Part shown: piece after piece, positions 2,214 through 64,000 of the stretch
Layout: each line of letters starts with the position of its first letter
Numbering within the stretch: the stretch's first letter is position 1
DNA from: Escherichia phage chee24
Strand: one strand, 5' to 3'
Length of the DNA stretch: 64,000 nucleotides
Sequence record: NC_047885.1
Position numbers and translations under genes: made by a program
Notes under the pieces: model-generated
The model's input: the letters and a program-made list of their open reading frames with translations, nothing else
What the model was told of the DNA's origin: nothing
The model's database searches: none

Positions 2214-2222
2214 GGAGGCAGA

Positions 2223-2615: not shown

Positions 2616-2639
2616 TTTTTATTAGCTGAACTCTGATTA

Positions 2640-2663: not shown

Positions 2664-2706
2664 TCCGTACTCAAGACCAATGATAGCACCATCCGGAAAA
2701 TTTTAC

Positions 2707-6241: not shown

Positions 6242-6249
6242 AAATTTAT

Positions 6250-6278: not shown

Positions 6279-6309
6279 AGATTCATAAATTTGAGAGAGG
6301 AGTTTAAAT

Positions 6310-7258: not shown

Positions 7259-7275
7259 CTACTTAAAAATTTCAG

Positions 7276-7304
7276 TTGCTTAATCCTATAATTCTTGATA
7301 TAAT
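7276..7304 (+). promoter_or_regulatory. sigma70-type promoter (TTGCTT-17-TATAAT)
   Basis: TTGCTT AATCCTATAATTCTTGA TATAAT with TG-extended -10; about 55 nt upstream of the 7362 gene. Confidence 0.6.
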
Positions 7305-7361
7305 ATTCTCATAGTTTGAAAGAACTATTCTGTTTAATTCTTAATTAAGGAAATATAAAAT

Positions 7362-7772
7362 ATGACTACTCCAACTCAGTGGACTGATGAACTGTTCGAA
7401 AAAATGTCTTCCGAATACGTTGCTCGTATGGAGCAATTCCCAGAGGATGAACGTCCGGGTGTTAGCATGGAAATTGTTAGCGAAATTGCCCAGGAAAACG
7501 GTGTAACTCCGAACGGTTTTCGTATGAAGCTAACTAAAGCAGGTATGTATATCAAGAAAGCTGCTGGCTCCGCTTCTAAATCTAGCGCATCTGCTGGAGA
7601 AAAAGCTTCTGGTGGTTCTCGTACTTCCAAAGCCCAAGCTCATGCCGATCTTCGTTCAGCATTCTCTGATGCTGGCCTAGCACCAGATTTTCTGGATGAT
7701 GCAATTATCGACAAACTGACCGGTAAAGCGGCTGCCCATCTTGCAGAAGCAATCCGAGCTATCACTAAGTAA
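7362..7772 (+). CDS. hypothetical early protein, probably abundant
   Basis: 136 aa; promoter at 7276-7304 and RBS AAGGA; codon usage enriched for host-preferred codons (CTG, CGT, GCT, GGT) against an AT-rich background; Ala/Ser/Gly-rich linker. Confidence 0.55.
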   Translation: MTTPTQWTDELFEKMSSEYVARMEQFPEDERPGVSMEIVSEIAQENGVTPNGFRMKLTKAGMYIKKAAGSASKSSASAGEKASGGSRTSKAQAHADLRSAFSDAGLAPDFLDDAIIDKLTGKAAAHLAEAIRAITK

Positions 7773-7808
7773 TTTTTAGATAAATCCACCAACAAAAGGA
7801 ACACAGTT

Positions 7809-8105
7809 ATGACCAAAGCTGAAATTATCGCACAATGTGAAAAATTTGGTGAGTTTTATCTTCATTACGAGAAACTTCGTCAGAAAGGAACCACGTACCT
7901 TCAGGGTACGATGGAATTTGATCCAGCCCAAGATAAATATCTGGCTGAGCGTATTAAACGTGAACGTATTCGTAAAGCGAAAGATGATGAAATCCTTGTC
8001 TTCTCTCGTACTAATGATAGTTTCCGTTTTATTCCTGTCGAGAAAGTCCGTCGTGTGACTAGCCTCCAATCAGAGTTAGATCGTGCTTCTCCAGTAGGCC
8101 GATAA
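7809..8105 (+). CDS. hypothetical protein
   Basis: 98 aa; RBS AAGGA; followed by a rho-independent terminator at 8116-8137. Confidence 0.5.
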   Translation: MTKAEIIAQCEKFGEFYLHYEKLRQKGTTYLQGTMEFDPAQDKYLAERIKRERIRKAKDDEILVFSRTNDSFRFIPVEKVRRVTSLQSELDRASPVGR

Positions 8106-8115
8106 GAAACCAATT

Positions 8116-8137
8116 AGCCCCTATATGGGGCTTTTTG
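8116..8137 (+). terminator. rho-independent terminator
   Basis: AGCCCC-TATAT-GGGGCT followed by TTTTT, just after the stop of 7809..8105. Confidence 0.55.
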
Positions 8138-8155
8138 TGTATTTGGGATATGTAA

Positions 8156-8464
8156 ATGAGCGAACAGGTAAATCAAAACTATGAAGGACACGTTGATGAC
8201 CAGTCCATCATACTTTGGGAGAAGGAGGGAGAACAAGTAAGATTAACAGTATCTGAATTTCGTGGGAATCTATACATGGGTATTCGTTACTGGCTTCTTG
8301 ATATTAATGATGAATGGTTTCCAACGAAATCTGGCTTCTCTTTTCCTTACACCCTAGAAACAACATCACAGCTTTTCTATGCGTTTACACAGATTCTTAG
8401 CGAATCTGAGGTTTTACATGAAGTACAGAAACGAGCTGAAGAACTCAAAGCCAAGAATGCCTAG
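8156..8464 (+). CDS. hypothetical protein
   Basis: 102 aa; stop codon lies inside the terminator hairpin at 8450-8477. Confidence 0.5.
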   Translation: MSEQVNQNYEGHVDDQSIILWEKEGEQVRLTVSEFRGNLYMGIRYWLLDINDEWFPTKSGFSFPYTLETTSQLFYAFTQILSESEVLHEVQKRAEELKAKNA

Positions 8465-8477
8465 TTCTTGGCTTTTT
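8450..8477 (+). terminator. rho-independent terminator
   Basis: GCCAAGAA-TGCCTAG-TTCTTGGC followed by TTTTTCTTT; the stop codon of 8156..8464 is in the loop. Confidence 0.6.
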
Positions 8478-8491
8478 CTTTATAAATGTAT

Positions 8492-8520
8492 TTGCTTTCA
8501 ACTCAGTTTTGTTATATAAT
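8492..8520 (+). promoter_or_regulatory. sigma70-type promoter (TTGCTT-17-TATAAT)
   Basis: TTGCTT TCAACTCAGTTTTGTTA TATAAT then ATTTATATAAATTAATGAGAGG downstream box. Confidence 0.65.
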
Positions 8521-8549
8521 ATTTATATAAATTAATGAGAGGATCAATC

Positions 8550-8750
8550 ATGGCAATGACAATAACACTTCCCAAGATTCAAGCAAAACTTAATCTACTT
8601 TCCACAGCACGCATTAATTATCAAGATAGCATAGGCACAGTAAATCAAAAGGTGTACAAAGATGCGTTCCTGAAAGAATCTGCTGATTTGATGGATATGG
8701 TTACACAATATAATAAAGAACTCAAGATGGAAATCGCCGATGATGAATAA
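8550..8750 (+). CDS. hypothetical small protein
   Basis: ATG at 8550 with RBS GAGAGGA (the track ORF starts at 8535, inside the RBS); downstream of the promoter at 8492-8520; overlaps the ligase start. Confidence 0.4.
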   Translation: MAMTITLPKIQAKLNLLSTARINYQDSIGTVNQKVYKDAFLKESADLMDMVTQYNKELKMEIADDE

Positions 8751-9714
8751 TGTAAAAGGCTTTATTAAGCGTTGTCAAGAAGCATATTATCAGGGTATGT
8801 CTTTAATCTCTGATGAGGAGTATGATTGCCTGGTAAAACGCTTCCCGTTAGAAGAAGAGATCGGGCCTAAGGGTGATATTCCACATCTGTATCGTATGTA
8901 TTCTTTACAGAAAGTTTATTATAATCGTGGAGATAAACCCCCGTTTAACCCGTTAGGTCAAGTAGAAACTGATAAGTTAGATGGTTGTGCAATTTCTCTG
9001 CTATATATTAATGGCGAATTTGTTCAAGCACTAACTCGTGGTAACGGTATTCTGGGAAATGATGTCACAAGCAACGTAAGATTGCTGAACATCCCTAAAA
9101 AGATTTCCCAAAAAGTACCTACTCAAATCACTGGTGAAGTTCTAATTACAAAAGAAGTAGAAAATAAACGTAATTTTGCCTCTGGCGCTATTAACCTCAA
9201 AGATAGTGATGATTTCGTACAACGCATTGGAGAAGGCGGTTTAATCTTTGTTGCTTACGGTATCCAATGTTCTGCTGAATCTGTAGGTATTACAGAAGCA
9301 TATTTAAAAGATATGCTTTGGCTAGAGAATGAGAACTTCTTAACAGTTGTTAATGTGCGTTCCTTTTTTAAATGGATTCCGACGGACGGTAAAGTTGTTC
9401 GTATTAATGACAACAACAAATTCTTCCGTGAAGGCTGGACTAATAAATTCCCTCGTGGAGCATTCGCCATTAAAGAGGATGAAGAAGGCGAGATTACAAC
9501 TCTTACTAAAGTTGAATGGCAGGTAGGGGCTTCTGGTAAAGTAACTCCAGTCGGTTATTTTGAACCAGTAATTATTGATGATGCTACAATTGTTAAAGCG
9601 ACTCTTAATAACGTTGATTATATTAACTCTCTTGATCTAGAGATCGGTTGCCAGATTCGAGTGATTCGTGCTGGTGGTGTAATCCCGTGCATAGTAGAGC
9701 GAGTATACGATTAA
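8740..9714 (+). CDS. NAD-dependent DNA ligase, N-terminal subunit (adenylation and OB domains)
   Basis: Block KLDGCAISLLYINGEFVQALTRGNGILGNDVTSNVR aligns with the bacterial LigA KxDG adenylation motif region; OB-fold-like C-terminus (IRVIRAGGVIPCIVE). Confidence 0.85.
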   Translation: MMNNVKGFIKRCQEAYYQGMSLISDEEYDCLVKRFPLEEEIGPKGDIPHLYRMYSLQKVYYNRGDKPPFNPLGQVETDKLDGCAISLLYINGEFVQALTRGNGILGNDVTSNVRLLNIPKKISQKVPTQITGEVLITKEVENKRNFASGAINLKDSDDFVQRIGEGGLIFVAYGIQCSAESVGITEAYLKDMLWLENENFLTVVNVRSFFKWIPTDGKVVRINDNNKFFREGWTNKFPRGAFAIKEDEEGEITTLTKVEWQVGASGKVTPVGYFEPVIIDDATIVKATLNNVDYINSLDLEIGCQIRVIRAGGVIPCIVERVYD

Positions 9715-9764
9715 TACATAACCCTTTGCTACCCATCTACCATATCGGAATTATAAAGTGGTTA

Positions 9765-9793
9765 TTGACATTTCCGCCGCTTAGGTATATACT
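9765..9793 (+). promoter_or_regulatory. consensus-like sigma70 promoter (TTGACA-17-TATACT) inside the ligase inter-subunit spacer
   Basis: TTGACA TTTCCGCCGCTTAGGTA TATACT; no substantial ORF follows before the next promoter. Confidence 0.55.
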
Positions 9794-9857
9794 ATTATCA
9801 TTCAGTTGAGGGATAGAAAGTTATGGCGAGGGTAAGCAAAGTTAGTTAAAATTGTAG

Positions 9858-9886
9858 TTGCTAAATGCTTAAATACTTGCTATAAT
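9858..9886 (+). promoter_or_regulatory. sigma70-type promoter (TTGCTA-17-TATAAT) for the ligase C-terminal subunit
   Basis: TTGCTA AATGCTTAAATACTTGC TATAAT then ATTTATATAAATTGATAAGGAAG. Confidence 0.6.
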
Positions 9887-9916
9887 ATTTATATAAATTG
9901 ATAAGGAAGAAATTTG

Positions 9917-10696
9917 ATGAAAATCGAAATTCCAACACAATGTCCCTCTTGTGGTTCTAAGCTAGATCTTGTCAACGGACAATTATTCTGTCGTAATAAG
10001 TCCAACTGTCCAGCGCAATCAAGTAAGTTAATTGAGAACTTCTGTACAAAAATGAAGTTAAAGGGCTTTGGCCCAAAAACTATTGAGAAGCTGGAGCTGA
10101 CGAAGATTTCAGAACTATTTTACCTAACCGAAGAAGATTTGGTTAGAGCCGTGGGTAGCAAGGTTGCCGCTAAGTTAATTAGCGAATTAAATAATAAAGT
10201 TCGCGGAGACATTGACTTTGGTTCAGTTCTCGGTTCTTTAGGAATCCCTCTAATCGGAGAGGTTGCAGCAAAGAAATTGTCCCAAAATTGCACCAGTTTT
10301 CAAGATGTGAGAGCTGATGGCAGAGCTGGAGAAAATTATAAAGCCTGGCTAAATTCCCCACAAGGCAAGGATGTTATCGAATTACCGTGGAAATTCACAA
10401 CTGGTATTAAAGGTGCTAAAGCTGAGGTCATCATCACTGATGGTCTAGTAGCCCAACCAAACGGAATAACGGTATGTATTACCGGATCTTTGCAAGATTT
10501 TGCAAATAGAACGGATGCAACAAACTATTTAGAAGGTCTAGGATATACGGTTAAGAAATCCGTTACCAAAGACGTCAAATACCTAATCTGTGAGGATGAA
10601 TCGAAGCGTTCTTCCTCATCTTATAAGAAAGCCGAAACGAATGGGATAGAAATCCTGTCGATTAAAGAACTATTGGAGAAAAATAATAATGTCTAA
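9917..10696 (+). CDS. NAD-dependent DNA ligase, C-terminal subunit (Zn finger, HhH, BRCT)
   Basis: CPSCGSKLDLVNGQLFCRNKSNCPAQ matches the LigA Cys4 zinc finger; GFGPKTIEKL helix-hairpin-helix; BRCT-like C-terminus (ITGSL...ILSIKELLE). ATG at 9917 with RBS AAGGAAG. Confidence 0.8.
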   Translation: MKIEIPTQCPSCGSKLDLVNGQLFCRNKSNCPAQSSKLIENFCTKMKLKGFGPKTIEKLELTKISELFYLTEEDLVRAVGSKVAAKLISELNNKVRGDIDFGSVLGSLGIPLIGEVAAKKLSQNCTSFQDVRADGRAGENYKAWLNSPQGKDVIELPWKFTTGIKGAKAEVIITDGLVAQPNGITVCITGSLQDFANRTDATNYLEGLGYTVKKSVTKDVKYLICEDESKRSSSSYKKAETNGIEILSIKELLEKNNNV

Positions 10697-53468: not shown

Positions 53469-53659
53469 TGGAAGTAGTAGCTACACTAATAGTAATACTA
53501 GTCTGGGCAACTTTCATTGTTTCTTATAACGCGTATGTTCGCCTAAAAACCCTAGAGGCTCAGGTAAAACAGCAACAATTTGCTATAGAAAAAGTAGTAG
53601 AACTGCAACGTTGTGATAGTATCCGTATTCTGCAAATTGAGAGGGAGTTAGATGTTTAG
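53465..53659 (+). CDS. small membrane protein (64 aa)
   Basis: N-terminal TM helix (VVATLIVILVWATFIV) then a coiled-coil-like tail; ATGA overlap with the upstream stop. Confidence 0.45.
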   Translation: MMEVVATLIVILVWATFIVSYNAYVRLKTLEAQVKQQQFAIEKVVELQRCDSIRILQIERELDV

Positions 53660-53897
53660 TATTGTAATTGCTTTTATTATCGGGGTAATCGCGGGAGTTT
53701 TCGGGACGACTGCGGCAATCAATAAGCATCGTAAATATATTGCGGAAGTATCGCGGGAGATTGCGGAAAGGGAGCGGAAGTTTGACGAGAAACGTGAGAA
53801 GTTTGAGCGGGAGTGGTCGGATGGATCTCGGGCGTCGCGGAAGAGATTCCGTGAGTTCAGACCAGAACACAGGTTTGATGACCCTTCTATGCGCTAA
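53652..53897 (+). CDS. small membrane protein (81 aa) with charged C-terminal tail
   Basis: N-terminal TM helix (MFSIVIAFIIGVIAGVFG) then an Arg/Glu/Lys-rich segment; GC-rich codon usage unlike the early/late regions. Confidence 0.45.
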   Translation: MFSIVIAFIIGVIAGVFGTTAAINKHRKYIAEVSREIAERERKFDEKREKFEREWSDGSRASRKRFREFRPEHRFDDPSMR

Positions 53898-53954
53898 TTT
53901 GACTTTTGCCAAATTTCATAAGATTACACATGGAGGTGTGTCCAGTGGCCCTCC

Positions 53955-54000
53955 AGATGAGAATGAGTCTCATTACCGCCCGGTACTTAGCAGGCTAATA
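53955..54000. repeat. about 45-bp element (ATGAGAATGAGTCTCAT palindrome + TTAGCAGGCTAA), homologous to 63183..63235
   Basis: About 80 percent identical by eye to the element at 63183-63235, same orientation, about 9.2 kb away. Confidence 0.45.
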
Positions 54001-54048
54001 GTCACGGCATGTTATCATTACACACCGTGACTATTTCAACTTTAATTA

Positions 54049-54783
54049 TTACGCAACTTTTAATTTCTCAATATATTGTTGCGGGCTGCAACTATATTCT
54101 GCGCGTTCTTCTTCGGTCATACCTTCCCAACATAATTGCAGGCGGTCGGCTAGGAACTGATAATCATTATCATCCTCAAGAGATTCATCAATAAAGGTTT
54201 CACCTATCAATGTCACGCCGATTGATAGAATATCGTTAACGGCTTGTGCGTCCAGCGTTTTAAATCCGTATGACGCTGCCGCTGATAGCACGCCTTTATG
54301 ATCATCAATCATTGTAAAATCAGCGTTCGGATATAATTGTTTGAATAGCCCAAAATAGTAACTTTTATAAACTGCGTCTTTGCTGTGGTATATCTCGCTA
54401 ACTTTATCAGCCTCAAAATATTTGTGTAGTGTATCGCGGGAAAATACACGGATATTACTATCACCACGACCGCGCAAGCCTTGTTTGCGCAAATAATAAT
54501 AGTCCGACTTGCTCATCAGTCGAGCGGTGCAAATAATGTTTAATGTATTTGCGTCATTCATGCACTGGCGCATATATGTAACAAGGGGCAATAAAGTATC
54601 TTGCATTATTAAATCATGTTTGCAGGCTTCATTTTTATACTTATTTAAATCTAAATTGCCCTCGCTATCAAAGCAAGGCGCTACACGATGGAAAGAATTA
54701 ATGATAGTGCCGTCCAGATCCCAAATCATGACGCGGGAAATATGCGGGAAATTACGGGTAATATTCATTTTAACTTGATTCAT
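54049..54783 (-). CDS. HAD-superfamily phosphatase, candidate 5'-deoxyribonucleotidase (T5 Dmp-like)
   Basis: 244 aa; HAD motif I IWDLDGTIINS; pre-early position next to the A1-like gene. Specific substrate is inferred from T5 knowledge. Confidence 0.5.
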   Translation of the reverse strand: MNQVKMNITRNFPHISRVMIWDLDGTIINSFHRVAPCFDSEGNLDLNKYKNEACKHDLIMQDTLLPLVTYMRQCMNDANTLNIICTARLMSKSDYYYLRKQGLRGRGDSNIRVFSRDTLHKYFEADKVSEIYHSKDAVYKSYYFGLFKQLYPNADFTMIDDHKGVLSAAASYGFKTLDAQAVNDILSIGVTLIGETFIDESLEDDNDYQFLADRLQLCWEGMTEEERAEYSCSPQQYIEKLKVA

Positions 54784-54863
54784 TTTGTTACGTTCTCCAT
54801 TAAAGGGATTAGATTAATTCAGCATTACCCGCTATTTATAAGCGGGTAATAATAAATTAACTA

Positions 54864-55256
54864 TTAAAGACCATACGCCAACGCATCAGCAATAAAACTA
54901 ATATCTTCACCAGATACACCGGAACGAATCCCCGCACAAGTATATACCTTTGCGCTGGTCAATTGATCATCGAGGCAAGCGGGGCAAGGTGCGACTACTG
55001 CGAAAGCTAAACCAGATTTTACCGCGTCAATAATGATGGTTTCTTGTTTCACCGTATCAACATAAACGCCTGCGGCCTTAATGTAACTACTTGCGCGGCC
55101 TTGCGTATAGGCAAAGGTAGTAACCTGCAAAGCGTCATTGAAATCTAATAGGTCATCAATAACGTGCCCCGCCTCGACGTGGTAACGTTCGCCATTAGAA
55201 TAAACCAGAACAATTGAGGATTGAGCGCGATCGAATGGAATATTTTGCTTTTTCAT
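54864..55256 (-). CDS. hypothetical protein with a possible zinc-deaminase-like signature
   Basis: 130 aa; contains HVEAGH and APCPAC, reminiscent of the H-x-E ... PCxxC zinc ligands of cytidine/dCMP deaminases, but with atypical spacing. Confidence 0.4.
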   Translation of the reverse strand: MKKQNIPFDRAQSSIVLVYSNGERYHVEAGHVIDDLLDFNDALQVTTFAYTQGRASSYIKAAGVYVDTVKQETIIIDAVKSGLAFAVVAPCPACLDDQLTSAKVYTCAGIRSGVSGEDISFIADALAYGL

Positions 55257-55294
55257 ATTTATAAAACTCCAATTAGTTTAATAAGGGGTTTAAT

Positions 55295-55585
55295 TTACTT
55301 GATAATAATTTGCATTTGATACGGCGTTAATTCACCGTTTACGGGTAAATTATTATCGCTTAGCCACTCATAAAAAGCACCATCATCATCAAAAGGGACA
55401 ATATCGTTATCACGGGAATCGACGGAAATAATACCATCCGTATTAGTTTTGGCGGCTAGGATAGGCCCGAAGCTGTAAACTTTATCAGATTCCATTTCAT
55501 CCGGTGAAATGAATACTTTTTCGTCCAATGTTTTGGGTAATGTAACTTTCATTTTTTGACTCCTATAATAGCGGCTATATTTCAA
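55295..55585 (-). CDS. hypothetical protein
   Basis: 96-aa ORF between the A1-like gene and 54864..55256; no motifs recognised. Confidence 0.45.
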   Translation of the reverse strand: MKYSRYYRSQKMKVTLPKTLDEKVFISPDEMESDKVYSFGPILAAKTNTDGIISVDSRDNDIVPFDDDGAFYEWLSDNNLPVNGELTPYQMQIIIK

Positions 55586-55605
55586 GCCGCTAGGGTATTA
55601 ATTAT

Positions 55606-57270
55606 TTACGCGAAAAATTTACCGTTTTTAAAGTCGATCAAAGTGCGCTGACCGTTTGCATAGGTAATAACATGCGTTTGCGTCCAGCTTGACGCGCCAA
55701 CGTTGTAACCCATGTCCAGACTACCAGACACGCCAGCGGTGTATACGCCGCCGTAAATGCTGGCGGTATGAGTGTGCCCCGTGTTTAATTTGCCCAATTT
55801 CTTAAACTGTTTCGGATTGCCACGGCTCCCGTTTATGCCATTGTGACCGTGTACGCCGCATTCAATACCTGCAATCTTGAAAGATTGATCAGTGGTCAGA
55901 AAAATGGCGTTAAATTCACAACCTGCAACCTTGCGCAGCGCATAATCTAGCACGTTGAAAGTATCGTCATGATCACCGATTGCCGCGTAAATTGCAGCAT
56001 TTAGGCGGTGATATAGTTCCGCGTTTGCTGGATCGTCTTTAATGTTAGCATTACGATCATCTAACCAGCGGGATAGCGCCAGATCATGATTAGACTCAAC
56101 AATGATTGTTTGCGAAAAATCGCGCTCCATTGACTCCAGCACGCGACCGGTATCGATAAGATCATCCAGAACTTTATCACGTCCGGCGGCATACTGTTTT
56201 GCTAGGAATACACCCGAAGCGCGGTTGTGATGGTTGCGTGATGTAAAGTCGTGAACGTCATGGATAAACTGATATTTTGGTTTAAGAATATCAAGCAAGC
56301 TATTTTCGCCAGCCCATGACGCAACGGCGCAAGCGTCATCCAATTTTTCGGCGTGTACGTCGCCATATTGTAAACCTAAAACGTGCCCCGTTGTTTCATA
56401 ACATCCGGCGGGAGTGGCGCAAACATTCAGATCATAAAACACCCCGCTTTCGTCCATTGTTTCAAGCTGGCGCACAAAAAACTCACCGTCTTCGTCGAAC
56501 TCAACAATCAGCGCCCCGAAATTATGCAGTGCTTCCGCTTTCTGTCCTGCTTTCTGCTGAATGTAGTTTTTAAGCGTTGCCGTTCCGGTTGAATACATAC
56601 GGCGCACAATTTCACCTTTTAAAGCTGGAACGCTTTCGGCGGTAATTTTTGCCGCTCCAATTGCCAGACCTTCGATATTTAAAGCCGTTGCAGTTTCTGC
56701 AAATCCAGAAAGCGGATAATCTGCGGTTGGCAAAACATTAATTTCAGCCATGAAAGCAAAGCGGCGGTTATTTAAAAACACGTTTTTGCTGCAAATATAT
56801 TTATCGAACGCGGAATCATATTTGATTCCGTCGGCGCCCTCGCCATTTTGAAAACCGTTTTTATTATAAATATACTTGCTAACTAGCAAATCAGCACCAA
56901 TAAATTGGGCGTATTGTTCAAGCGAGGCTAAAAAGTTTTTATGAGGGAACGTATTATTCTGAATCGATGTAATAATAAAGCGTTTACCCTGCTTTACTTC
57001 CCATTGTTCAACCGTGCTAGAAACAATCCCCGCCGCTTCTGGGCGCTCATCGTTTTTAATGGCTTTTGCTACTTTCGCCGCTTTCGGTTTCGCTGGTTTA
57101 TTTGCTTCCAGCCAATCGCAAATTGCGGTGGAGTGTTTTGTTGTATCATAAACCGCTTTAGAAATATCGTCGCACACTTCCAGCTTAGTAGCGCGCAGGC
57201 GTTTACCGTAGAAATTGAAATCAGCGGCCATTTTCAGGATAACGGTTTGTTTTTCTGCGGAAATAACCAT
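55606..57270 (-). CDS. A1-like pre-early protein with calcineurin-like metallophosphatase motifs
   Basis: 554 aa; metallophosphoesterase motifs LQYGDVHAE, IVESNHD and GHTHTASIYGG; size and context match T5 A1 as I remember it. Confidence 0.65.
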   Translation of the reverse strand: MVISAEKQTVILKMAADFNFYGKRLRATKLEVCDDISKAVYDTTKHSTAICDWLEANKPAKPKAAKVAKAIKNDERPEAAGIVSSTVEQWEVKQGKRFIITSIQNNTFPHKNFLASLEQYAQFIGADLLVSKYIYNKNGFQNGEGADGIKYDSAFDKYICSKNVFLNNRRFAFMAEINVLPTADYPLSGFAETATALNIEGLAIGAAKITAESVPALKGEIVRRMYSTGTATLKNYIQQKAGQKAEALHNFGALIVEFDEDGEFFVRQLETMDESGVFYDLNVCATPAGCYETTGHVLGLQYGDVHAEKLDDACAVASWAGENSLLDILKPKYQFIHDVHDFTSRNHHNRASGVFLAKQYAAGRDKVLDDLIDTGRVLESMERDFSQTIIVESNHDLALSRWLDDRNANIKDDPANAELYHRLNAAIYAAIGDHDDTFNVLDYALRKVAGCEFNAIFLTTDQSFKIAGIECGVHGHNGINGSRGNPKQFKKLGKLNTGHTHTASIYGGVYTAGVSGSLDMGYNVGASSWTQTHVITYANGQRTLIDFKNGKFFA

Positions 57271-57368
57271 AATAATAAAACTCCATTAAAGGGATTAAAA
57301 AACGTTTGTTATTGGCAAATATTGCCAAATATAACGCCGCTCATTTACAGCGTTATAATTTGCAACAT

Positions 57369-57566
57369 TTAACTAATTGGCACTAGGCTAGAACTAACAC
57401 CACAAACAACGGCAGCAATAAAACAAAGTAAGCCCAAACGCTTTGCTAATTTAGATTTACGTTTAAAATAATACGAATCTAAATCATTTTGAAAATAAGC
57501 GAACAATAGGGAGGCCGCTACAATAAATAAGCCTAAAATTAGCGATTCAGTGGGAAAGAAAACCAT
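57369..57566 (-). CDS. small membrane protein (two predicted TM helices)
   Basis: Start moved to the ATG at 57566 (RBS GGAG); the track ORF extends to 57614. Hydrophobic segments LILGLFIVAASLLFAYF and LGLLCFIAAVVCGVSSSL. Confidence 0.4.
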   Translation of the reverse strand: MVFFPTESLILGLFIVAASLLFAYFQNDLDSYYFKRKSKLAKRLGLLCFIAAVVCGVSSSLVPIS

Positions 57567-57623
57567 TTTAATAACTCCAGTCAAAGGGAAATTATAGTGG
57601 GGAATATTCCCCACTAATTAAAT

Positions 57624-58031
57624 TTATTCGCCTGCGGCTTGTTTTACTTCATCGGCAACGCCTAACAGTTGCGCCACGGCGTCCAGCGTTTCTAATTTTG
57701 CGCTTTCCAGCGATGCCAGATCGTCGGCGTCTTTGATAATGCCGGAATCAATAGCATGTTTAGCGATAACGCGCACATAGTGAGCCTTACGAATTGAACT
57801 GCCGCCGCCAACTTTGCGCGGCTTATCGCTTTTCTGGTACGCTTTTGCGCTGGTCAATTTTGAGCGAACAGACACGGGAGAAGCCGCACCAACTGTTTTT
57901 GCGATCTCTTTCAGGCCGTCGCTGTTGGCGAACTCCAAGCCGTTTTCATTGATCAACTGTTGATACATGGTAACAGCCTGCTGGGTGTTTTCTTCATTCC
58001 AAGAGAATTTTGCGGTTTTAGCGTTAGTCAT
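57624..58031 (-). CDS. hypothetical pre-early protein (A2 position in T5-like phages)
   Basis: 135 aa immediately upstream (- strand) of the A1-like gene; GC-rich codon usage; identification as A2 is by synteny only. Confidence 0.45.
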   Translation of the reverse strand: MTNAKTAKFSWNEENTQQAVTMYQQLINENGLEFANSDGLKEIAKTVGAASPVSVRSKLTSAKAYQKSDKPRKVGGGSSIRKAHYVRVIAKHAIDSGIIKDADDLASLESAKLETLDAVAQLLGVADEVKQAAGE

Positions 58032-58129
58032 GATTATAACTCCTATTGATTTAATTTAAGGGATAAGATTAACATAATGTTAATCGTTATATACCCCGAA
58101 CTACTGGGGTATATAAAGTTAACACTAAA

Positions 58130-58381
58130 TTATAAAACAGCTTCCCATTTTTCGTTGCGCTGGGCAACCTTTACAACGTCGCCGGATTTAACCCGAACGC
58201 TATAAATAGTTTTCCCGTTGTTACTCCGTTCCGTTTCAGCGTATACCGCATCAATTACATCAAACGGCATAAGCGCCGCGCCTTTAATGCGTTCGGCCTT
58301 TCCGGTTAATTCGTCCGTTTTAGTAACGAAAGGAATAAAAACGGATTGACCAATTTTTGGCGCATTAGTAACGTTTTTCAT
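58130..58381 (-). CDS. hypothetical protein
   Basis: 83 aa; RBS GGAG; preceded by a 52-bp composite palindrome and followed by a GC-clamped hairpin. Confidence 0.45.
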   Translation of the reverse strand: MKNVTNAPKIGQSVFIPFVTKTDELTGKAERIKGAALMPFDVIDAVYAETERSNNGKTIYSVRVKSGDVVKVAQRNEKWEAVL

Positions 58382-58405
58382 GGTATAAACTCCAGTTTAT
58401 TCAGT

Positions 58406-58457
58406 GGATTGTTCCGCATTACCTGCTAGAAAGTAGCAGGTAATAAGCAACAATCCG
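58406..58457. promoter_or_regulatory. 52-bp composite palindrome (operator-like or 5'-UTR structure)
   Basis: GGATTGTT-CCGC-ATTACCTGCTA-GAAAG-TAGCAGGTAAT-AAGC-AACAATCC: perfect 11-bp inner arms and 8-bp outer arms, about 25 bp upstream of the start of 58130..58381. Confidence 0.55.
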
Positions 58458-58609
58458 CTCGCCATTATAATCAATTTAAAGAACTCCACTCAGGCCGCTA
58501 TATCCCAGTTAGGGGGCGGGACACATTATGGTAAGTGCCGACCGTCAAATTTTATCAAGTTATCGCTCTCATCGAACTGGGTACATCTTAAAGCCTATCG
58601 GCTAGGGTG

Positions 58610-58813
58610 TCAAACAGTTTTTTGCAGTTTTTTATGATTTTCTTTCAGGTCAATCATAATATTGCGCCAGATCATTTCCAAACCTTGCTGGCGGCCTTTC
58701 TTGTACTGCATGAATCTGAATTTTACGGATTGTTGAGCTATTGTCAACAGCTTTCTAGTATTGCCATCCAATTTTTTGGCGGGTTTACCAGTGATTAATA
58801 AAGTTTGTTTCAT
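58610..58813 (-). CDS. hypothetical small basic protein
   Basis: 67 aa, Lys-rich; start overlaps the stop of an upstream 52-codon ORF (ATGA). Confidence 0.35.
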   Translation of the reverse strand: MKQTLLITGKPAKKLDGNTRKLLTIAQQSVKFRFMQYKKGRQQGLEMIWRNIMIDLKENHKKLQKTV

Positions 58814-58968
58814 TCCACGCCCTCCAGTGCATACAGACCTTTACCATCATTACAGAATACAACCGCTTCTGAATGGTTGGCGTGATATTCGTTTGCCGCT
58901 TTTACCCATTGCTCGATCTTTTCGATCGTGTCATGGGTTGCTGGATGATCGTTATATATTGTTTGCAT
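58810..58968 (-). CDS. hypothetical small protein (52 aa)
   Basis: Not in the ORF track. ATG with AAGGA 9 nt upstream; translation MQTIYNDHPATHDTIEKIEQWVKAANEYHANHSEAVVFCNDGKGLYALEGVE; coupled to 58610..58813. Confidence 0.3.
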   Translation of the reverse strand: MQTIYNDHPATHDTIEKIEQWVKAANEYHANHSEAVVFCNDGKGLYALEGVE

Positions 58969-59763
58969 ATCTGCGATTCCTTATAATGAATAAGTTTACC
59001 GCCGATAGACTTTAAGATATACCCAATTTTTAAAGAGCGCGGCGGTAAACTTCCCGCCGTGTAGTTCGTCATTGCCGCCCTACGTGATAAATAATAGGGT
59101 ATTCCCGAAAATGGCGCAACCTTATTTTTGTAAAGAAACGTAAAGAAAGCAACACGTTCGGCGCTCACCTAAGTTTAAAGGAAACGGGCGCGCGAATACC
59201 ATAAAACCAAGCAGATAGGCAAGTAATTTTTTCATTTATATTTGCCTTGCCCTACTTGACAAAATCTAAAAAGCTCGTGGTAGCGATAAACGGCTTATCC
59301 CCTTATGATGGGATGGCTAAAAACTTCATCGCGTTCTAGGACGTTTTAGGCGCATTCTAGCCTTGTTGATAACTTATCCCCAAAAGCAAAAATGAAATTT
59401 TCCTAGTTATCCACTTGACTTTTATTTTCCAGTGGATAACTACTTATTTTATAAAATTAATTAATTGACTTTTATTTGTTAGTGTGTATCGGAAAGATAG
59501 CAGACTAATAATTGTTAGGATTATAATCATGCTGGTGGATTGTAACAGCCTGAACTATTAGCAGACTATTAATCTCGGAAAATCTCATTAGCCAACTAAC
59601 TATTTCATATTATATAATATACATATAAATTAATGAGAAATAATAATTATAAGAAATCGTAACCGATAGAAATAATAACTACAAAAATAATCACCGTTAT
59701 AATAATAACGATAAGAAACTATCGGCCTAAGTGAGAACCACTATCATTTAAGTTATTCACAAA

Positions 59764-59833
59764 GTTATCCACAGCACAAAATGATTTGACACGATAGGCG
59801 GCGATATAAGGACTTATCCACAGACTTATCCAC
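59764..59833 (+). promoter_or_regulatory. cluster of three consensus DnaA boxes (TTATCCACA)
   Basis: Perfect 9-mers at about 59764, 59813 and 59825; further near-matches TTATCCACT / AGTGGATAA as an inverted pair at about 59407 and 59431. Confidence 0.5.
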
Positions 59834-59841
59834 ATGTTATC

Positions 59842-59861
59842 CTACTGTATATTTATACAGG
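59842..59861. promoter_or_regulatory. LexA (SOS) box-like palindrome
   Basis: TACTGTATATTTATACAGGG fits CTGT-N8-ACAG with AT-rich spacer; immediately downstream of the DnaA boxes. Confidence 0.45.
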
Positions 59862-60126
59862 GTAAAAAGGTAGTGTTAACAACTGCAATCAATTTTAAGC
59901 GGCCTAAAACGCTTTCTAACGAGCAAAACGCTATAGGGTAATATTAAAGTAAAGCCTCAACGCGTCGCCCTGGTGACTTCGCCGTGTTTTGCTCTTTACT
60001 ATACCGCTGCGCGTTTAACATAAAAATAAGCGTTAGGCAAGGAAAATAAAAAGGTAAAATAATATTTGCCCCTAGAAAGAAAATACCTTTATCATTCACT
60101 CACCGATTAACGAGGGAGGCCAACAA

Positions 60127-61119
60127 ATGCGGCTATATAAACCAGATAACGCAACCGTCTTAAAAGGTGCGTTGCGTAACCTGCTGGATGGTAGCAGAAC
60201 AACCAGCATTAAACATTTTGTTTTCAATATTGAAACACTTCATCGTAATTTTCTTGATGATTACGATGCTTATAATATGAATAGTTTTCTACCGTTATAT
60301 AATCAAGGGGCAACGCTTGTTTTATATAATCAGGAATCTCACTTGCTTACTAGTCGAGGGCCAGATACTGATTTTATTATAGTGAAAGGCAGTACAGTAA
60401 AAGCCTATGATGCGGGGGCGGGCTTAGAAGTTTTCACGATAGAAAATTATGAGCCTTATGATAAGGATCTTTATGACGTAGAAAATTTTCTCGATTCATT
60501 TTGGCGTTATTTATCAATTGGGTGGAATCGATCAGATTATCACGGGTATCGTTTTGCGGCTATAATGGCTTTTGATGATAACGGTAATTTTTTGCTACCG
60601 TCGGAATTATACCCGTATGTATATAATGATTTAATAGAGGAGGCTGGTTTTACTTTCTGGAAAGATGAAGATCAGCCTATTGACAACACGGAAAAACATG
60701 CTGTAAATTCTAACACTCAAAGCGTTAACACTCAAATTACTGAAAACAAAGGAAAAAATACCATGACCAAGATCGCTAATATCGTTGCCGCCAATAAGTC
60801 TGCTGTTGTAAATGCTGCAAAACTGGAAGCGGGTAAAATTGCATTAACTCAAATCACGAAAGTAGCGGCTAAAAAAGCGCCGTTTATGATTAAAGGTTAT
60901 ATTGATACGCCGATTGGTCGGGTAGTTATTGCCAACCTGCTGAGCGTAGCGGTTGACCAGTACGCCCCAGCTAACCAGAAAGCGAAAGCGGTAGCAGGTG
61001 CAGCTATGGAAGCGGCTATGTTAGAAATGGTGCAAAGTTTTAACATCGCTGAAATGATCGATGAAATGGTGAAAGGTATTGATATTTCTACTTTTACCAC
61101 TAGCACCGAAAGCGAGTAA
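60127..61119 (+). CDS. hypothetical protein (330 aa)
   Basis: Strong RBS GAGGGAGG before the ATG; first gene of the + strand operon leaving the DnaA/LexA-box control region; Ala/Lys-rich helical C-terminal third; no motifs recognised. Confidence 0.6.
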   Translation: MRLYKPDNATVLKGALRNLLDGSRTTSIKHFVFNIETLHRNFLDDYDAYNMNSFLPLYNQGATLVLYNQESHLLTSRGPDTDFIIVKGSTVKAYDAGAGLEVFTIENYEPYDKDLYDVENFLDSFWRYLSIGWNRSDYHGYRFAAIMAFDDNGNFLLPSELYPYVYNDLIEEAGFTFWKDEDQPIDNTEKHAVNSNTQSVNTQITENKGKNTMTKIANIVAANKSAVVNAAKLEAGKIALTQITKVAAKKAPFMIKGYIDTPIGRVVIANLLSVAVDQYAPANQKAKAVAGAAMEAAMLEMVQSFNIAEMIDEMVKGIDISTFTTSTESE

Positions 61120-61128
61120 TAATATTAA

Positions 61129-61150
61129 GCGGGGATTGTTACCCCGCTTT
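61129..61150 (+). terminator. putative terminator
   Basis: GCGGGG-ATTGTTA-CCCCGC followed by TTT ACTATT; weak U-tract. Confidence 0.45.
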
Positions 61151-61183
61151 ACTATTCCCTTGTTAATTAATAGGAGGCTAATT

Positions 61184-61678
61184 ATGCCAGAAGAAAAATA
61201 TGGCTTCTCACTGGGAGAAGTGAGTACGGCTAAACATGATATGATTGTTTTAGTCGATTGCCATACCGGTTATTGCGGGGAAGGGAATACTGAGGAATAT
61301 TTTGTTCCTGCTGGTACGGATCTCGACGCTTTCGCCCATGAAATGGCTGTTGATAATGCTTCTCGTTTTGGTAGCGATGGTTACGAAGACGAAGAAACGG
61401 GCGATTGGTATGAGAATGATAATGTATATGCAAGCCTTTATCATTATCAATTAAGTAAATCCGGCACATATGTAAACGGCGGTGATCCTATTAATTCCGT
61501 CATGAAATTAATTATTAAATATGGCGGCGTCGAGATAGTCGATAACAAAGCGGTAATATATGCAAACCGATTAAAACAGCTTGTTTATATCCCTGATAGT
61601 ACCCGATGGGAGGAATATGCTGTTTTGCATGATGAATTAAAACGATGTTTCAATATTGAAACCTTACAAGTAGTTTAA
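61184..61678 (+). CDS. hypothetical acidic protein (164 aa)
   Basis: ATG at 61184 with RBS TAGGAGG (track ORF starts at 61079); followed by a rho-independent terminator. Confidence 0.55.
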   Translation: MPEEKYGFSLGEVSTAKHDMIVLVDCHTGYCGEGNTEEYFVPAGTDLDAFAHEMAVDNASRFGSDGYEDEETGDWYENDNVYASLYHYQLSKSGTYVNGGDPINSVMKLIIKYGGVEIVDNKAVIYANRLKQLVYIPDSTRWEEYAVLHDELKRCFNIETLQVV

Positions 61679-61693
61679 TGTAAAGTTTTGTAA

Positions 61694-61722
61694 AGGCCGC
61701 CTCTTATGGTGGCCTTTTTTGT
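61694..61722 (+). terminator. rho-independent terminator
   Basis: AGGCCGCC-TCTTAT-GGTGGCCT followed by TTTTTTTG. Confidence 0.6.
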
Positions 61723-61786
61723 TATAATGCCTTTACACCGTTTAAGGACGGTTGAAAATTTTCCCAAAAAATTTTGGAGGCTTATA

Positions 61787-62017
61787 ATGGTTGCTTATTC
61801 TTCTTCTGACGCTCTTTTCACTGGAAAAGGCTGGGTATCAAATCGCTGGATCATTCAAGAAATGGTGCAAGAATATGGCATTGCTAAAACTTACACTACC
61901 ATTCAGGCGCTTTATGATAATGATCAAATTGATCAGCAAACGGCGGGCTTTTTGCTGGATACCCTAAAAGCGGAACACTGCACCAAAAAACAAGCTGCAA
62001 AAATTGTTTTAATGTAA
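61787..62017 (+). CDS. hypothetical protein (76 aa)
   Basis: ATG at 61787 with RBS GGAGG (track ORF starts at 61706, inside the terminator). Confidence 0.45.
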   Translation: MVAYSSSDALFTGKGWVSNRWIIQEMVQEYGIAKTYTTIQALYDNDQIDQQTAGFLLDTLKAEHCTKKQAAKIVLM

Positions 62018-62064
62018 TTAATAAAGGGGGATACTATATCCCCCACTAACTAGAGAGAATAAAA

Positions 62065-62211
62065 ATGGTTATTTTTCGAGCTATTCTAGCAGGTATCTTG
62101 GGCGCTATTTTATCACTTTTTGCAATAGCTTTCGGCGTTCACGCGGTTATTATTGGCGCGGGGATTGCCGTTTTTTCTTATCTGCTGGGCTGCATGAATA
62201 AAGGAGAATAA
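62065..62211 (+). CDS. small membrane protein (48 aa, two hydrophobic segments)
   Basis: Not in the ORF track. Translation MVIFRAILAGILGAILSLFAIAFGVHAVIIGAGIAVFSYLLGCMNKGE; stop closely followed by the RBS of the next gene. Confidence 0.35.
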   Translation: MVIFRAILAGILGAILSLFAIAFGVHAVIIGAGIAVFSYLLGCMNKGE

Positions 62212-62213
62212 AA

Positions 62214-62426
62214 ATGATCCGCAACGTTTCCCTTGCCCGCTCCAAAGGCTTTAAGCTGGTGGACGTTAACACGTTTGAGCGGGAGGATTGTAAAATCGAA
62301 TATGTAGCACGCAACAAAAATGCCTTTCGTGTTACAGAAAAGAAATTTGACAAGCGCGGCAACGTGATCGCTGAAACGGTTAAACACTTTGCCACCTTTT
62401 ACGCTGCGTTTCGTGGGGTGTTATAA
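62214..62426 (+). CDS. hypothetical protein (70 aa)
   Basis: RBS AAAGGAG 8 nt before the ATG. Confidence 0.45.
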   Translation: MIRNVSLARSKGFKLVDVNTFEREDCKIEYVARNKNAFRVTEKKFDKRGNVIAETVKHFATFYAAFRGVL

Positions 62427-62427
62427 A

Positions 62428-62772
62428 ATGGTTATTTATGAGGGCAATCGTTTTGTTGCTAATTGCCGTCCGGCATTACTAGCAAACTATTTAAATCAGG
62501 TTTCACCTGAATATAAAGGCGTCATTAATATTTACGAGGGTAAGGCGCACTATAAAATTAATGCGGTCGTTGCCCGTGAATTAGCATTTCAATTTTTGAC
62601 CTTTGCATCTTGTGACGTTCAGGTTATGGGTGAAGCATTAATTGCAGAAAATGAAGATGATTTTATTAATATTTTCCGCAAGATATGCACCGAGCGCCTG
62701 ATCATGAAAGGCGCATATATTCAATCCACTGCGGATAGCATTGAAACAGCGTTTCGAAAGGTGGCGCAATGA
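62428..62772 (+). CDS. hypothetical protein (114 aa)
   Basis: ATG at 62428 directly after the stop of the previous gene (track ORF starts at 62389). Confidence 0.5.
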   Translation: MVIYEGNRFVANCRPALLANYLNQVSPEYKGVINIYEGKAHYKINAVVARELAFQFLTFASCDVQVMGEALIAENEDDFINIFRKICTERLIMKGAYIQSTADSIETAFRKVAQ

Positions 62773-62927
62773 AAAAGTTTTTAATAGCTGGTATGTTTCC
62801 TTTGTTGCCTTATGTAATTTGCTGGGCTTTATACGCTCATGGTGCTAGTGTTCCCGGTGTGGCCTCGTTTGGTGTATCGGCTGGTTTTCTAACCGGACTA
62901 TTGGCAAGCGTATATCTGCGCAAATAA
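62769..62927 (+). CDS. small membrane protein (52 aa)
   Basis: Not in the ORF track. ATGA overlap with the upstream stop; translation MKKFLIAGMFPLLPYVICWALYAHGASVPGVASFGVSAGFLTGLLASVYLRK. Confidence 0.35.
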   Translation: MKKFLIAGMFPLLPYVICWALYAHGASVPGVASFGVSAGFLTGLLASVYLRK

Positions 62928-62945
62928 TTAATAACGGGAGTTATT

Positions 62946-63140
62946 ATGAGCAATAAAATTGTTGTAACCAAAATCAGTACAATGGTTGACGTTTTTTATG
63001 TGCCCGATACGCCGGAAAACCGGCAAGCGGTCGAGCGTGGCGAGTATGATAAAGTGATTTATGATCACGATGGTTACTATCAACATTTGGTGGATTCCTA
63101 CGGGGAGGGGGAAAAAATCACGCATCGACTACCAGACTAG
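62946..63140 (+). CDS. hypothetical protein (64 aa)
   Basis: RBS GGGAG; last ORF before the repeat-rich non-coding region. Confidence 0.45.
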   Translation: MSNKIVVTKISTMVDVFYVPDTPENRQAVERGEYDKVIYDHDGYYQHLVDSYGEGEKITHRLPD

Positions 63141-63180
63141 TAATCACGGGGGCGCAACTACCAGGGAGTGCCCCCAATTC

Positions 63181-63205
63181 TCAAATGAGAATGATTCTCA
63201 TTTGA
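63181..63205. repeat. 25-bp near-perfect palindrome TCAAATGAGAATGATTCTCATTTGA
   Basis: 12-bp arms around one central base; arm sequence AATGAGAAT recurs in the tandem repeats at 63520-63715 and in the element at 53955-54000. Confidence 0.6.
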
Positions 63206-63397
63206 CCGCGCCCGCGATGGTTAGCCTGCTAATGATTAGGGTGTTACGTGTCGCCTTGTGTGATCGTTAGCAGGCTAACTAATTTTTAAGCCTCCTCCAA
63301 TTTTGCCCTTGTTTTAGTATCCCCATCAAAATTAAACGCGTTAGAATGCGATTCAGGACGTTTTAGGCCTATATTAGAATTATTCACTACATAGGAG

Positions 63398-63417
63398 TAC
63401 TGTATATTTATACAGTA
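63398..63417. promoter_or_regulatory. LexA (SOS) box-like palindrome
   Basis: TACTGTATATTTATACAGTA: one mismatch to the E. coli LexA consensus TACTGTATATATATACAGTA as I recall it. Confidence 0.45.
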
Positions 63418-63425
63418 GAATAACC

Positions 63426-63508
63426 TGGGGATAAGTCTGTGGATAACGCCTCAAAATGGCTAGGATTCTGTCAAGTCAAATCGTGCTGTTGATAAGTCTG
63501 TGGATAAC
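63426..63508 (-). promoter_or_regulatory. DnaA boxes in inverted orientation
   Basis: Two copies of GATAAGTCTGTGGATAAC (reverse complement contains TTATCCACA) at about 63429 and 63491; the 18-mer TTATCCACAGACTTATCC is shared with 59813-59830 in opposite orientation. Confidence 0.45.
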
Positions 63509-63519
63509 TTAAATAACAG

Positions 63520-63715
63520 TGTTTCTCACTTCCATTTTTAAATGCGAATCATTATCATTTGCATTTCACTGTCTAACTGATAATCATTTCACTTTTTAAA
63601 TGAGAATCATTTCACTTTTTGAATAGTTCTCATTCCGCTTTTTAAATGAGAATAATTATCATTCGCATTTCACTTTTTAAATGAGATTGATTCTCATTAT
63701 CATTCGCATTTAGGC
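63520..63715. repeat. tandem direct repeats (core CTTTTTAAATGAGAAT) interleaved with ATTATCATTCGCATTTCACT units
   Basis: Five core copies at about 63535, 63593, 63616 (diverged), 63639 and 63673; three copies of the second unit. Confidence 0.6.
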
Positions 63716-63740
63716 GAGCAGGGCAATTGCCCTGCGCTTT

Positions 63741-63964
63741 TGTGCAAATCCGACATTGCTCCACGGGTGTTACGTGCGGGCGTGTATGTGCGAATCCGAC
63801 AATTTTTGGTAGTGTGCGAATCCGACCCGAAAAATTTTTATAGTGTGCAAATCCGACAATGAATTTTCCCAAAAACTCCAGCAATCTCGAACTGCGTTCG
63901 AATCCTGTGGAATTAGCTAGAATATGTGCAAATCCGACATGTGTTGAGATGTGCGAATCCGACA
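63741..63964 (+). repeat. iteron-like array: six direct copies of TGTGCRAATCCGACA
   Basis: Copies at about 63741, 63787, 63813, 63844, 63925 and 63950, all in the same orientation with irregular spacing; array reaches the window end. Confidence 0.65.
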
Positions 63965-64000
63965 AGATTTTTGTGACTTCGATTGGAGGGTGTGTGATTG

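Follow-up and report, generated by a model that had tools for sequence, protein, structure and literature searches.

The subject of this study is a repeat-rich segment of the genome of Escherichia phage chee24 (NC_047885.1), at positions 63181-63715 of the 64,000-nt stretch of DNA that was analysed (the window), in which an initial annotation had recognized a family of palindromes and tandem repeats sharing the core AATGAGAAT. Over positions 62900-64000 the window shows 100% identity with the terminal repeat annotated in the phages pork27, pork29, saus47N, saus111K and poul124 (Tequintavirus chee24) and 90-94% identity with many T5-like phages of Escherichia, Salmonella and Klebsiella; no similarity to this part was found among the 72,556 plasmids of PLSDB. 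The left terminal repeat of pork29 (1-9968 of its record) is identical to window 54033-64000, so that the window makes up the final 64,000 nt of such a genome, and by these matches the palindrome array is in the right copy of a ~10-kb terminal repeat, which carries the pre-early, or first-step-transfer (FST), genes dmp, A1 and A2. Judged by the same alignments, positions 63181-63715 are the orthologue of T5 "Repeat Region 3", the injection-stop (iss) region, and the repeats as such are already known: at the orthologous place the T5 annotation (GenBank AY587007) lists palindromes C-J, direct repeats B, C and D, inverted repeats C'/D' and the major 7.9% nick. Transfer of T5 DNA pauses in this non-coding stretch once ~8% of the genome is inside the cell. 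According to a preprint (Davison, 10.1101/866236), A1 and A2 are both needed for the second step of transfer; the preprint uses the name Repeat Region 3, regards the region as the probable injection stop signal and stresses its paired DnaA boxes. A 2023 paper on phage BF23 describes experimental studies of iss sites as lacking, papers of 2023 and 2026 treat the iss as a repeat-rich non-coding region whose function is still called unknown, and the published accounts of the T5 iss repeats assign no binding protein to palindromes E-I and mention neither iron nor the ferric uptake regulator (Fur).

The T5 counterpart of the region (T5 9194-10409, non-coding, at the right end of the ~10-kb terminal repeat) aligns with the window element by element, and the order of the elements is kept. 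Two pairs of DnaA or DnaA-like boxes (GGGGATAAgtcTGTGGATAA, TTGATAAgtcTGTGGATAA) at 63425-63508, equivalent to T5 IRD'/IRC', are followed by the array at 63527-63710, by a palJ-like GC hairpin (63718-63735) and by repeats of the type called 'direct repeat D' (DRD) in T5. The hairpin, GCAGGGCAATTGCCCTGC and then GCGC on the plus strand (63718-63738), corresponds to T5 palindrome J with the major 7.9% nick site and closes the array; the six DRD-like repeats, with the sequence TGTGCRAATCCGACA, are found at 63734-63964 and fill the last 270 nt of the window. What had been annotated as five tandem CTTTTTAAATGAGAAT repeats turned out to be six degenerate direct repeats of ~23 nt (CATTTCACTTTTTAAATGAGAAT; plus strand, 63527-63692), spaced with periods of 35, 23, 23, 23 and 35 and equivalent to T5 direct repeats C plus the 66-bp DRE units; the exact 16-mer is present in two of them only. 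The palindromes of the array form overlapping groups at 63541-63565, 63645-63669 and 63680-63710, which match T5 palindromes E, G and I, respectively; the palindromic variant previously located near 63678-63697 belongs to the last group and was found at 63680-63698, with one mismatch. Upstream of the array, the 25-bp palindrome TCAAATGAGAATGATTCTCATTTGA at 63181-63205 consists of two 12-nt arms that are perfectly complementary around a single central base (12-1-12), and is kept in most relatives; we refer to it and its surroundings as element B, and to the distant element that had been proposed as its homologue as element A (palindrome GATGAGAATGAGTCTCATT, 53956-53974).

The homology between the two elements is well founded: 53943-54014 aligns with 63166-63246 over ~80 nt with a score of 60, as compared with 21 ± 4.4 (maximum 45) for shuffled sequences, and the two share a GC-rich segment, the 19-bp palindrome, ACCGC..CCG and a small palindrome, TTAGC-NN-GCTAA. 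The enrichment of the core is likewise not due to chance, as the window contains six copies of AATGAGAAT versus 1.43 expected, five of the six within 63184-63698, and the density of the heptamer TGAGAAT in 63150-63720 is ~42 times that in the remainder of the window. In a search that took in the ~94 kb of unique phage DNA (pork29 record 9969-50000 plus window 1-54032), neither the 19-bp palindrome, at 3 mismatches or fewer, nor TTAGCNNGCTAA was seen outside elements A, B and the array; both are kept in related phages. The initial annotation had also described the pre-early block as GC-rich: its GC content is 40.4%, versus 39.2% in unique DNA, and thus not notably higher, while that of the array segment is 28%.

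Do the palindromes act as paired strands or as pairs of half-sites? Among the 37 distinct instances the two variable positions are complementary between the halves in 15 and 16 cases, versus 18.6 and 17.9 expected, and only 6 of the 37 are internally symmetric. Complementarity is therefore at chance level, a result that speaks against any selection for hairpin or cruciform pairing and supports, from the pattern of variation, the halves being independent half-sites of a dimeric, sequence-specific DNA-binding protein. A search of 53600-64000 against Rfam gave no match, and a terminator scan flagged the palJ-like hairpin (63718-63735) and none of the AT-rich palindromes. Among known binding sites, the ATTTCAC boxes of P1 parS-like sites and the consensus sequences of IHF, CRP and ArgR were dropped by eye, their spacing or bases being unfitting.

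A much closer match is provided by the operators of Escherichia coli Fur. We built a matrix de novo from 11 E. coli K-12 intergenic regions upstream of known Fur-repressed genes (fepA-fes, fepD-entS, fepB-entC, fhuA, fecA, cirA, tonB, exbB, fiu, fhuE and ryhB) by means of an unseeded palindromic Gibbs search, which converged on AATGATAATCATTATCATT, with the highest information at AATG/CATT and the lowest at position 6, the position of the G of the phage motif. The eight top matches to this matrix in the window all fall on the palindromes, at 63645, 63184, 63541, 63680, 63651, 63686, 63547 and 53956, with scores of 15.6 to 23.4 bits; for the natural E. coli sites, leave-one-out scoring gives a median of 15.6 bits and a best value of 20.1 bits. 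In the array the boxes form two pairs and a triplet, at 63541-63565 (22.6 bits at 63541, 17.1 at 63547), 63645-63669 (23.4 bits at 63645, 18.8 at 63651) and 63680-63710 (20.3 bits at 63680, 18.3 at 63686, 9.6 at 63692), while the box of element B (63184-63202) scores 23.0 bits and that of element A 15.6 bits. The next matches (59730, 55298, 54156 and 57470) are also in the repeat, so that 12 matches above 12 bits are found in its 10 kb versus 1 in the 93.6 kb of unique phage DNA that entered the matrix scan; no match above 12 bits was found in 43.1 kb of non-training E. coli DNA. Mononucleotide shuffles of the array, at 28% GC, give 0.16 matches above 8 bits versus 8 observed, and among 3000 symmetric permutations of the columns of the matrix only 0.1% yield at least 8 matches of at least 15 bits and none exceeds the observed maximum.

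The agreement extends beyond the scores. At position 5, which the phage search pattern had left free, the phage sites have A and C with frequencies of 0.67 and 0.22, versus 0.69 and 0.23 in E. coli, and the strong matches are grouped at offsets of exactly 6 bp (63541/47, 63645/51, 63680/86/92), as in natural promoters; such clusters are present in all relatives. Neighbours offset by exactly 6 (or 3) bp are the mark of Fur site clusters according to Chen et al. (PMC2189734), and crystal structures of Fur-DNA complexes attribute readout to a conserved G, to thymines and to an AT-rich centre, with the other positions degenerate (PMC4506495); the phage motif, with its invariant G and its AT-rich centre flanked by free neighbours, fits this mode of recognition. 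In terms of individual operators, the phage core TGAGAAT-N-ATTCTCA is one symmetric base apart from the canonical Fur 7-1-7 sequence TGATAAT-N-ATTATCA, and the six sites of the window with no more than 2 mismatches from the latter are all in the repeat. Read on the opposite strand, as ATTCTCATT, the core AATGAGAAT is the half-site with which the ryhB operator ends, and close variants are seen in exbB (GTTCTCATT) and fhuA (ATTCTCGTT); some orthologous copies of the phage palindrome are perfect Fur boxes, those of the loci L032, L035 and L036 being identical at 19 of 19 positions to the ryhB operator AATAATAATCATTCTCATT. Thus, the phage sites share with the operators of ryhB, exbB, fhuA and fepB-entC (consensus GATAATGATAATCATTATC, or TGATAATNATTATCA in the 7-1-7 form) the same 19-bp inverted repeat, the same informative and uninformative positions and the same 6-bp-offset overlaps. 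They differ from them in being away from the promoters of host iron-uptake genes and, for most of them in this phage, from any evident promoter, in forming an array that is denser and scores higher than the natural sites sampled, and in that binding to them is predicted from sequence. In the array, a promoter scan gave 5 weak promoter-like matches versus 2.9 expected.

One further box deserves a separate comment. The only perfect 7-1-7 sequence of the window, TGATAATCATTATCA at 54158-54172 (matrix match at 54156-54174, 14.2 bits), lies inside the minus-strand gene dmp, where it encodes DDNDY; the box is kept in 25 of 27 loci and hardly changes across 27 distinct dmp sequences, whose synonymous sites on either side of it do vary. 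Its synonymous variability is 0.015 versus a gene mean of 0.15, but this is only the 7th lowest value of 240 windows, and DDNDY together with a 70% share of T-ending codons gives the box with p ~0.17; we have therefore set it aside as independent evidence.

The relatives available for comparison, collected through dmp, comprise 36 loci from ~28 T5-like genomes. In all 25 of the T5-like genomes examined in this respect the repeat has 7-15 matches above 12 bits and the adjacent ~10 kb has 0-1, and the array is present in every genome examined, always beside paired DnaA boxes. Strong sites next to DnaA boxes are kept even in Yersinia phage phiR2-01 and in three metagenomic relatives whose A2 is 53-76% identical. 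A comparison of the copies shows AATG..AAT.ATT..CATT to be invariant and the variation to be limited to the two bases that follow the G (AG, AT, CG, CA). In T5 itself, whose Repeat Region 3 has the same order of elements and the same position at the right end of the repeat, the matrix matches fall on palE (9473, 20.1 bits), palG (9577, 23.7 bits) and palI (9612, 20.3 bits), the last of which also contains the rough estimate of the T5 FST shear point, 9618 (Davison preprint 10.1101/866236). T5 differs from this phage and from many relatives in that these have two extra palindromes, one at the left terminus and one (63184 in the window) in place of the terminator palC; it has neither of the two, and elements A and B are thus accessory rather than essential. 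At the left end two types of module can be told apart, a T5 type without the palindrome and a pork29 type with it, and in the latter GATGAGAATGAGTCTCATT is invariant in 13 loci in spite of differing flanks. In six loci of more distant phages (L011, L019, L032 and L034-L036) the region of element B is not homologous, yet a palindrome of the same family precedes the homologue of open reading frame (ORF) 62946-63140. There it stands directly after a TACAAT hexamer, between a terminator-like hairpin and the ribosome-binding site, ~520-620 nt before the arrays; this arrangement suggests that in these phages the small pre-early ORF may be under Fur-type control.

Fur-type boxes are also neighbours of both clusters of DnaA boxes, with 63541 beside 63425-63508 and 59730 beside 59754-59840. 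The latter cluster is the equivalent of T5 IRC/IRD, and its Fur-type box (59730-59748, 14.9 bits, in the central promoter region) is found in most relatives; a weaker match is present in T5 at the start of inverted repeat C (IRC; 6022-6040). In both clusters the DnaA boxes come in pairs 3 bp apart (for example TTATTCACAaagTTATCCACA), and the Fur-type box is on the outer side of each. The position of the 59730 box implies that the inverted duplication of the DnaA module carries a Fur-type box along.

We interpret these observations as follows. The palindromes are probably operators of the Fur type, with the Fur protein of the host as their most likely ligand, and we assign a probability of about 0.5 to the fuller proposition, in which the AATGAGAAT palindromes serve host Fur as its operators (Fur boxes) and are concentrated in an array that lies where injection pauses. 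The repeats have been catalogued before; the identification of the T5 iss palindromes as Fur boxes appears to be new, as no link between Fur and T5-like phages turned up in the literature that could be searched, older subscription papers not included. The dedicated DNA-binding regulator that the initial annotation had postulated is upheld in so far as a dimeric, sequence-specific binder is concerned; a protein dedicated to the phage is not the best reading, because the motif matches the host Fur box down to its secondary base preferences and its 6-bp-offset clustering.

A possible sequence of events can be outlined. Since FST DNA would enter the cell before any phage protein is made, host proteins alone would be available to bind it. 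Iron-loaded Fur dimers would occupy the sites, two dimers on each 6-bp-offset pair, with the main array (63541-63710, the palE/palG/palI-DRC part of Repeat Region 3) acting as three groups of 2-3 overlapping sites, with 53956 and 63184 as single accessory sites and with the boxes in dmp and next to the second DnaA-box cluster as weaker ones. Together with DnaA on the adjacent paired boxes, Fur would thus form a complex of host proteins and DNA at the point where further entry waits for the synthesis of A1 and A2. We infer both the occupancy and the role in the pause, and consider it doubtful that such a complex marks or holds the pause. Alternatively, the Fur complex might be a roadblock to host RNA polymerase as this transcribes into the rest of the genome and pulls it in, or it might provide an input of iron status to the timing of second-step transfer. 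The stronger proposition that Fur, probably with DnaA, is the long-sought trans-acting factor of two-step injection in T5, which, loaded with iron, would assemble on the palE/G/I array as this comes into the cell and would contribute to halting or holding transfer at 8% until A1/A2 act, appears improbable to us. The logic of the complex is the same as in the DnaA-box model of the T5 stop (Davison, 2020), in which a pre-existing host protein binds specifically to clustered iss sites; the protein and the sites are different, and in that model the palindromes are left unexplained or taken as possible sites of cleavage by A1/A2. A further parallel is with the Fur titration assay (FURTA), in which multicopy Fur boxes titrate Fur. 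Like a FURTA plasmid insert, this phage has many strong Fur-type boxes on high-copy DNA, with two repeats per genome; it differs in that T5 destroys host DNA early, without obvious gain from a derepression of host iron genes.

Several points weigh against this interpretation. The support for Fur comes from sequence, and the width of the matrix (19 bp) and its palindromic constraint were set with the literature model in mind. The commonest half-site of the phage is TGAGAAT, while the optimum for Fur is TGATAAT, and a phage protein of overlapping specificity would look alike. Elements A and B are missing from T5 itself. We know of no host-factor screen that reported fur as needed by T5. Moreover, it is not obvious that a protein sitting on DNA which has already entered would keep more from following. 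A role of the array as a 'sponge' that titrates Fur and derepresses host iron genes was set aside on reasoning: T5 destroys the DNA of its host within the first minutes, which makes titration unlikely and leaves it without evident benefit. Lastly, the dmp box, as seen above, can be explained by its codons and by codon bias.

The rival explanation that we take most seriously, while holding it to be clearly less probable than host Fur, is that the palindromes are operators for a dimeric binder encoded by the phage, the best candidate being pre-early A2, with or without A1, which would switch pre-early transcription off, lift the pause, or do both; the resemblance of the sites to Fur boxes would then be mimicry or coincidence. 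The A2 gene is part of this terminal repeat (57624-58031, minus strand); its product, the sole annotated DNA binder, falls in a PHROG that carries the label 'DNA binding protein', and is required with A1 for second-step transfer (Davison preprint 10.1101/866236). Its AlphaFold model is confident (pLDDT 85), all-helical and weakly similar to small HTH/Myb-like domains. The departure of TGAGAAT from the Fur optimum would also be accounted for, as would the operator-like position of the palindrome in some relatives, between TACAAT and the ribosome-binding site of a pre-early ORF. Yet the pause precedes any phage protein, so that A2 could not set up the stop and could act only in release or shut-off; the motif is unchanged as A2 diverges, down to 53% identity; and the phage sites match the Fur matrix better than natural Fur sites do, with agreement down to the secondary base preferences and the 6-bp clustering. 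In the 10 ORFs of the terminal repeat Pfam recognizes domains of unknown function only and no Fur-like, HTH or other DNA-binding domain, and a fold search of A2 against the PDB gave a best E of 0.9 and nothing Fur-like. In the classical view, by comparison, no specific protein is needed, and the palindromes and phased T-tracts act as DNA structure, through cruciforms or bending, to hinder passage or mark the stop. Palindromes and A/T tracts are indeed dense in the 28% GC segment, a GC hairpin and the 7.9% nick mark its end, and published work looks for the signal in these repeats and palindromes (Davison preprint 10.1101/866236); we nonetheless regard this as an unlikely account of the palindromes, as what is conserved is a specific pattern of bases and not the potential for pairing, which is at chance. 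In vitro, T5 is reported to eject its whole genome into FhuA proteoliposomes without a stop at 8%, which points to a cellular factor and counts against structure by itself.

Two other explanations start from the position of the elements, and both seem to us very improbable. One is that the sites serve the processing of genome ends or replication, as terminase sites at the borders of the repeat or as an origin with iterons and DnaA boxes. Element A is 17-60 nt from the T5-type left terminus, and the combination of DnaA boxes with direct repeats of ~23 nt and an AT-rich segment resembles an origin of the plasmid type; however, T5 and many relatives have the same terminus without palindrome A, element B and the array are set back by 0.5-1 kb from the right-hand boundary of the repeat, the ORFs of the terminal repeat include no gene of the Rep type that an iteron origin would call for, and T5 origins are near the centre of the genome according to literature cited in the Davison preprint (10.1101/866236). 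The lack of any match in the plasmid collection is a further argument against an origin, or a partition site, of this kind. The other sees elements A and B as modules acting on RNA, terminators or stabilizers of the 3' ends of the two divergent pre-early operons. Each is just beyond the last gene of one operon, rho-independent terminators are annotated at equivalent places in T5 (69-105, and palC at 9196-9212), and an inverted repeat at 63220-63279, formed over 17 nt by two TTAGC-NN-GCTAA palindromes (63221-63232 and 63267-63278), is followed by a T-run. On the other hand, 19-bp AT-rich palindromes are not the GC-rich stems of terminators and were not detected as such in the scan, the centres of TTAGC-NN-GCTAA show no compensatory change, and the array would be left unexplained; A and B, moreover, have the same orientation on the plus strand, although they would be transcribed in opposite directions, which favours a role at the level of DNA rather than RNA.

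The position of the two elements can be described with more precision. According to the T5 promoter annotation, two divergent pre-early operons fire outward from the middle of the repeat. Element A is beyond the terminator of the leftward operon (dmp), and element B is just past the last ORF of the rightward operon (62946-63140); it begins with a GC-rich inverted repeat, GGGGGC...GCCCCC (63148-63175, plus strand), that directly follows the stop codon of this ORF and is within the ~80-nt homology between A and B. The two elements thus bracket the coding part of FST DNA, and in this sense the earlier suggestion of related sites at both borders of the block stands; it needs amending as regards element A, which is probably inside the terminal repeat and not outside it. 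In the source record the terminal repeat is annotated from window 54033, which would leave element A out. The T5 repeat begins at TGTCCACTG, and those of five other records begin at the equivalent GTCCAGTGG, TGTCCAGTGG or GCCCAGTGG, which correspond to window 53939-53942. Judged by the termini of T5 and these five relatives, element A is probably 17-60 nt from the physical left end, its palindrome being ~17 nt from a T5-type left terminus at window ~53939/53940; the left end is the one that enters the cell first.

The annotated repeat (window 54033-64000) is probably also too short at its other end, as the end of the T5 repeat, ...TTCTGTGGATC, matches pork27 ~207 nt past the annotated end (L001 4102-4309); if the repeat is longer, the deposited genome would be short of ~94 nt on the left and ~207 nt on the right per repeat copy. 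Read inward, the two T5 ends start with TGTCCACTG... and GATCCACAG... and have TCCAC in common, a similarity that is weaker in this phage (TGTCCAGTG, GAGCCACAG); the shared TCCAC may be a short inverted terminal motif at the sites of terminase cutting. The TGTGCRAATCCGACA repeats, which are unrelated to the Fur-type motif, run on into the unique region, with two more copies at L001 4387-4445, past the annotated repeat end. The palindrome array and the DRD repeats are overlaid in the record by a coding sequence, P29_0014 (9610-10143; window 63642-63965, minus strand), which crosses the annotated repeat boundary; since it also starts in non-coding repeat DNA, this 'hypothetical protein' is very likely a spurious gene call.

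The smaller palindrome, TTAGC-NN-GCTAA, occurs in three copies only in the ~104 kb surveyed, all of them within elements A and B: one in element A (TTAGCAGGCTAA, 53987-53998, the second 5-2-5 palindrome that the two elements share) and the two of the inverted repeat in element B. Variants of the copy in element A are found in all T5-like left ends, those within the first ~100 nt of every T5-like genome including TTAGTCTGCTAA and ATGCTAAC. Its central dinucleotide differs among phages without a compensating change, and by this free variation it looks like a protein site; it is perhaps another candidate of this kind, tied to the recognition of genome ends.

How the transfer of T5 DNA is stopped at 8% has been an open question since the 1960s; the sequence of the cis region and the catalogue of its elements go back to 1987, with palindromes that have no protein assigned to them. 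Should the palindromes prove to be Fur boxes, standard tools could be applied to this old question; should Fur not bind them, the search would still be narrowed to a protein with a defined 19-bp specificity. If they are Fur boxes, a strictly lytic phage would keep, in the first DNA that enters the cell, a conserved array of operators for a global regulator of its host. Under the stronger and improbable proposition that Fur is the factor of two-step injection, the delivery of T5-like phages, which enter by Fur-regulated TonB-dependent receptors, would respond to the iron status of the host.

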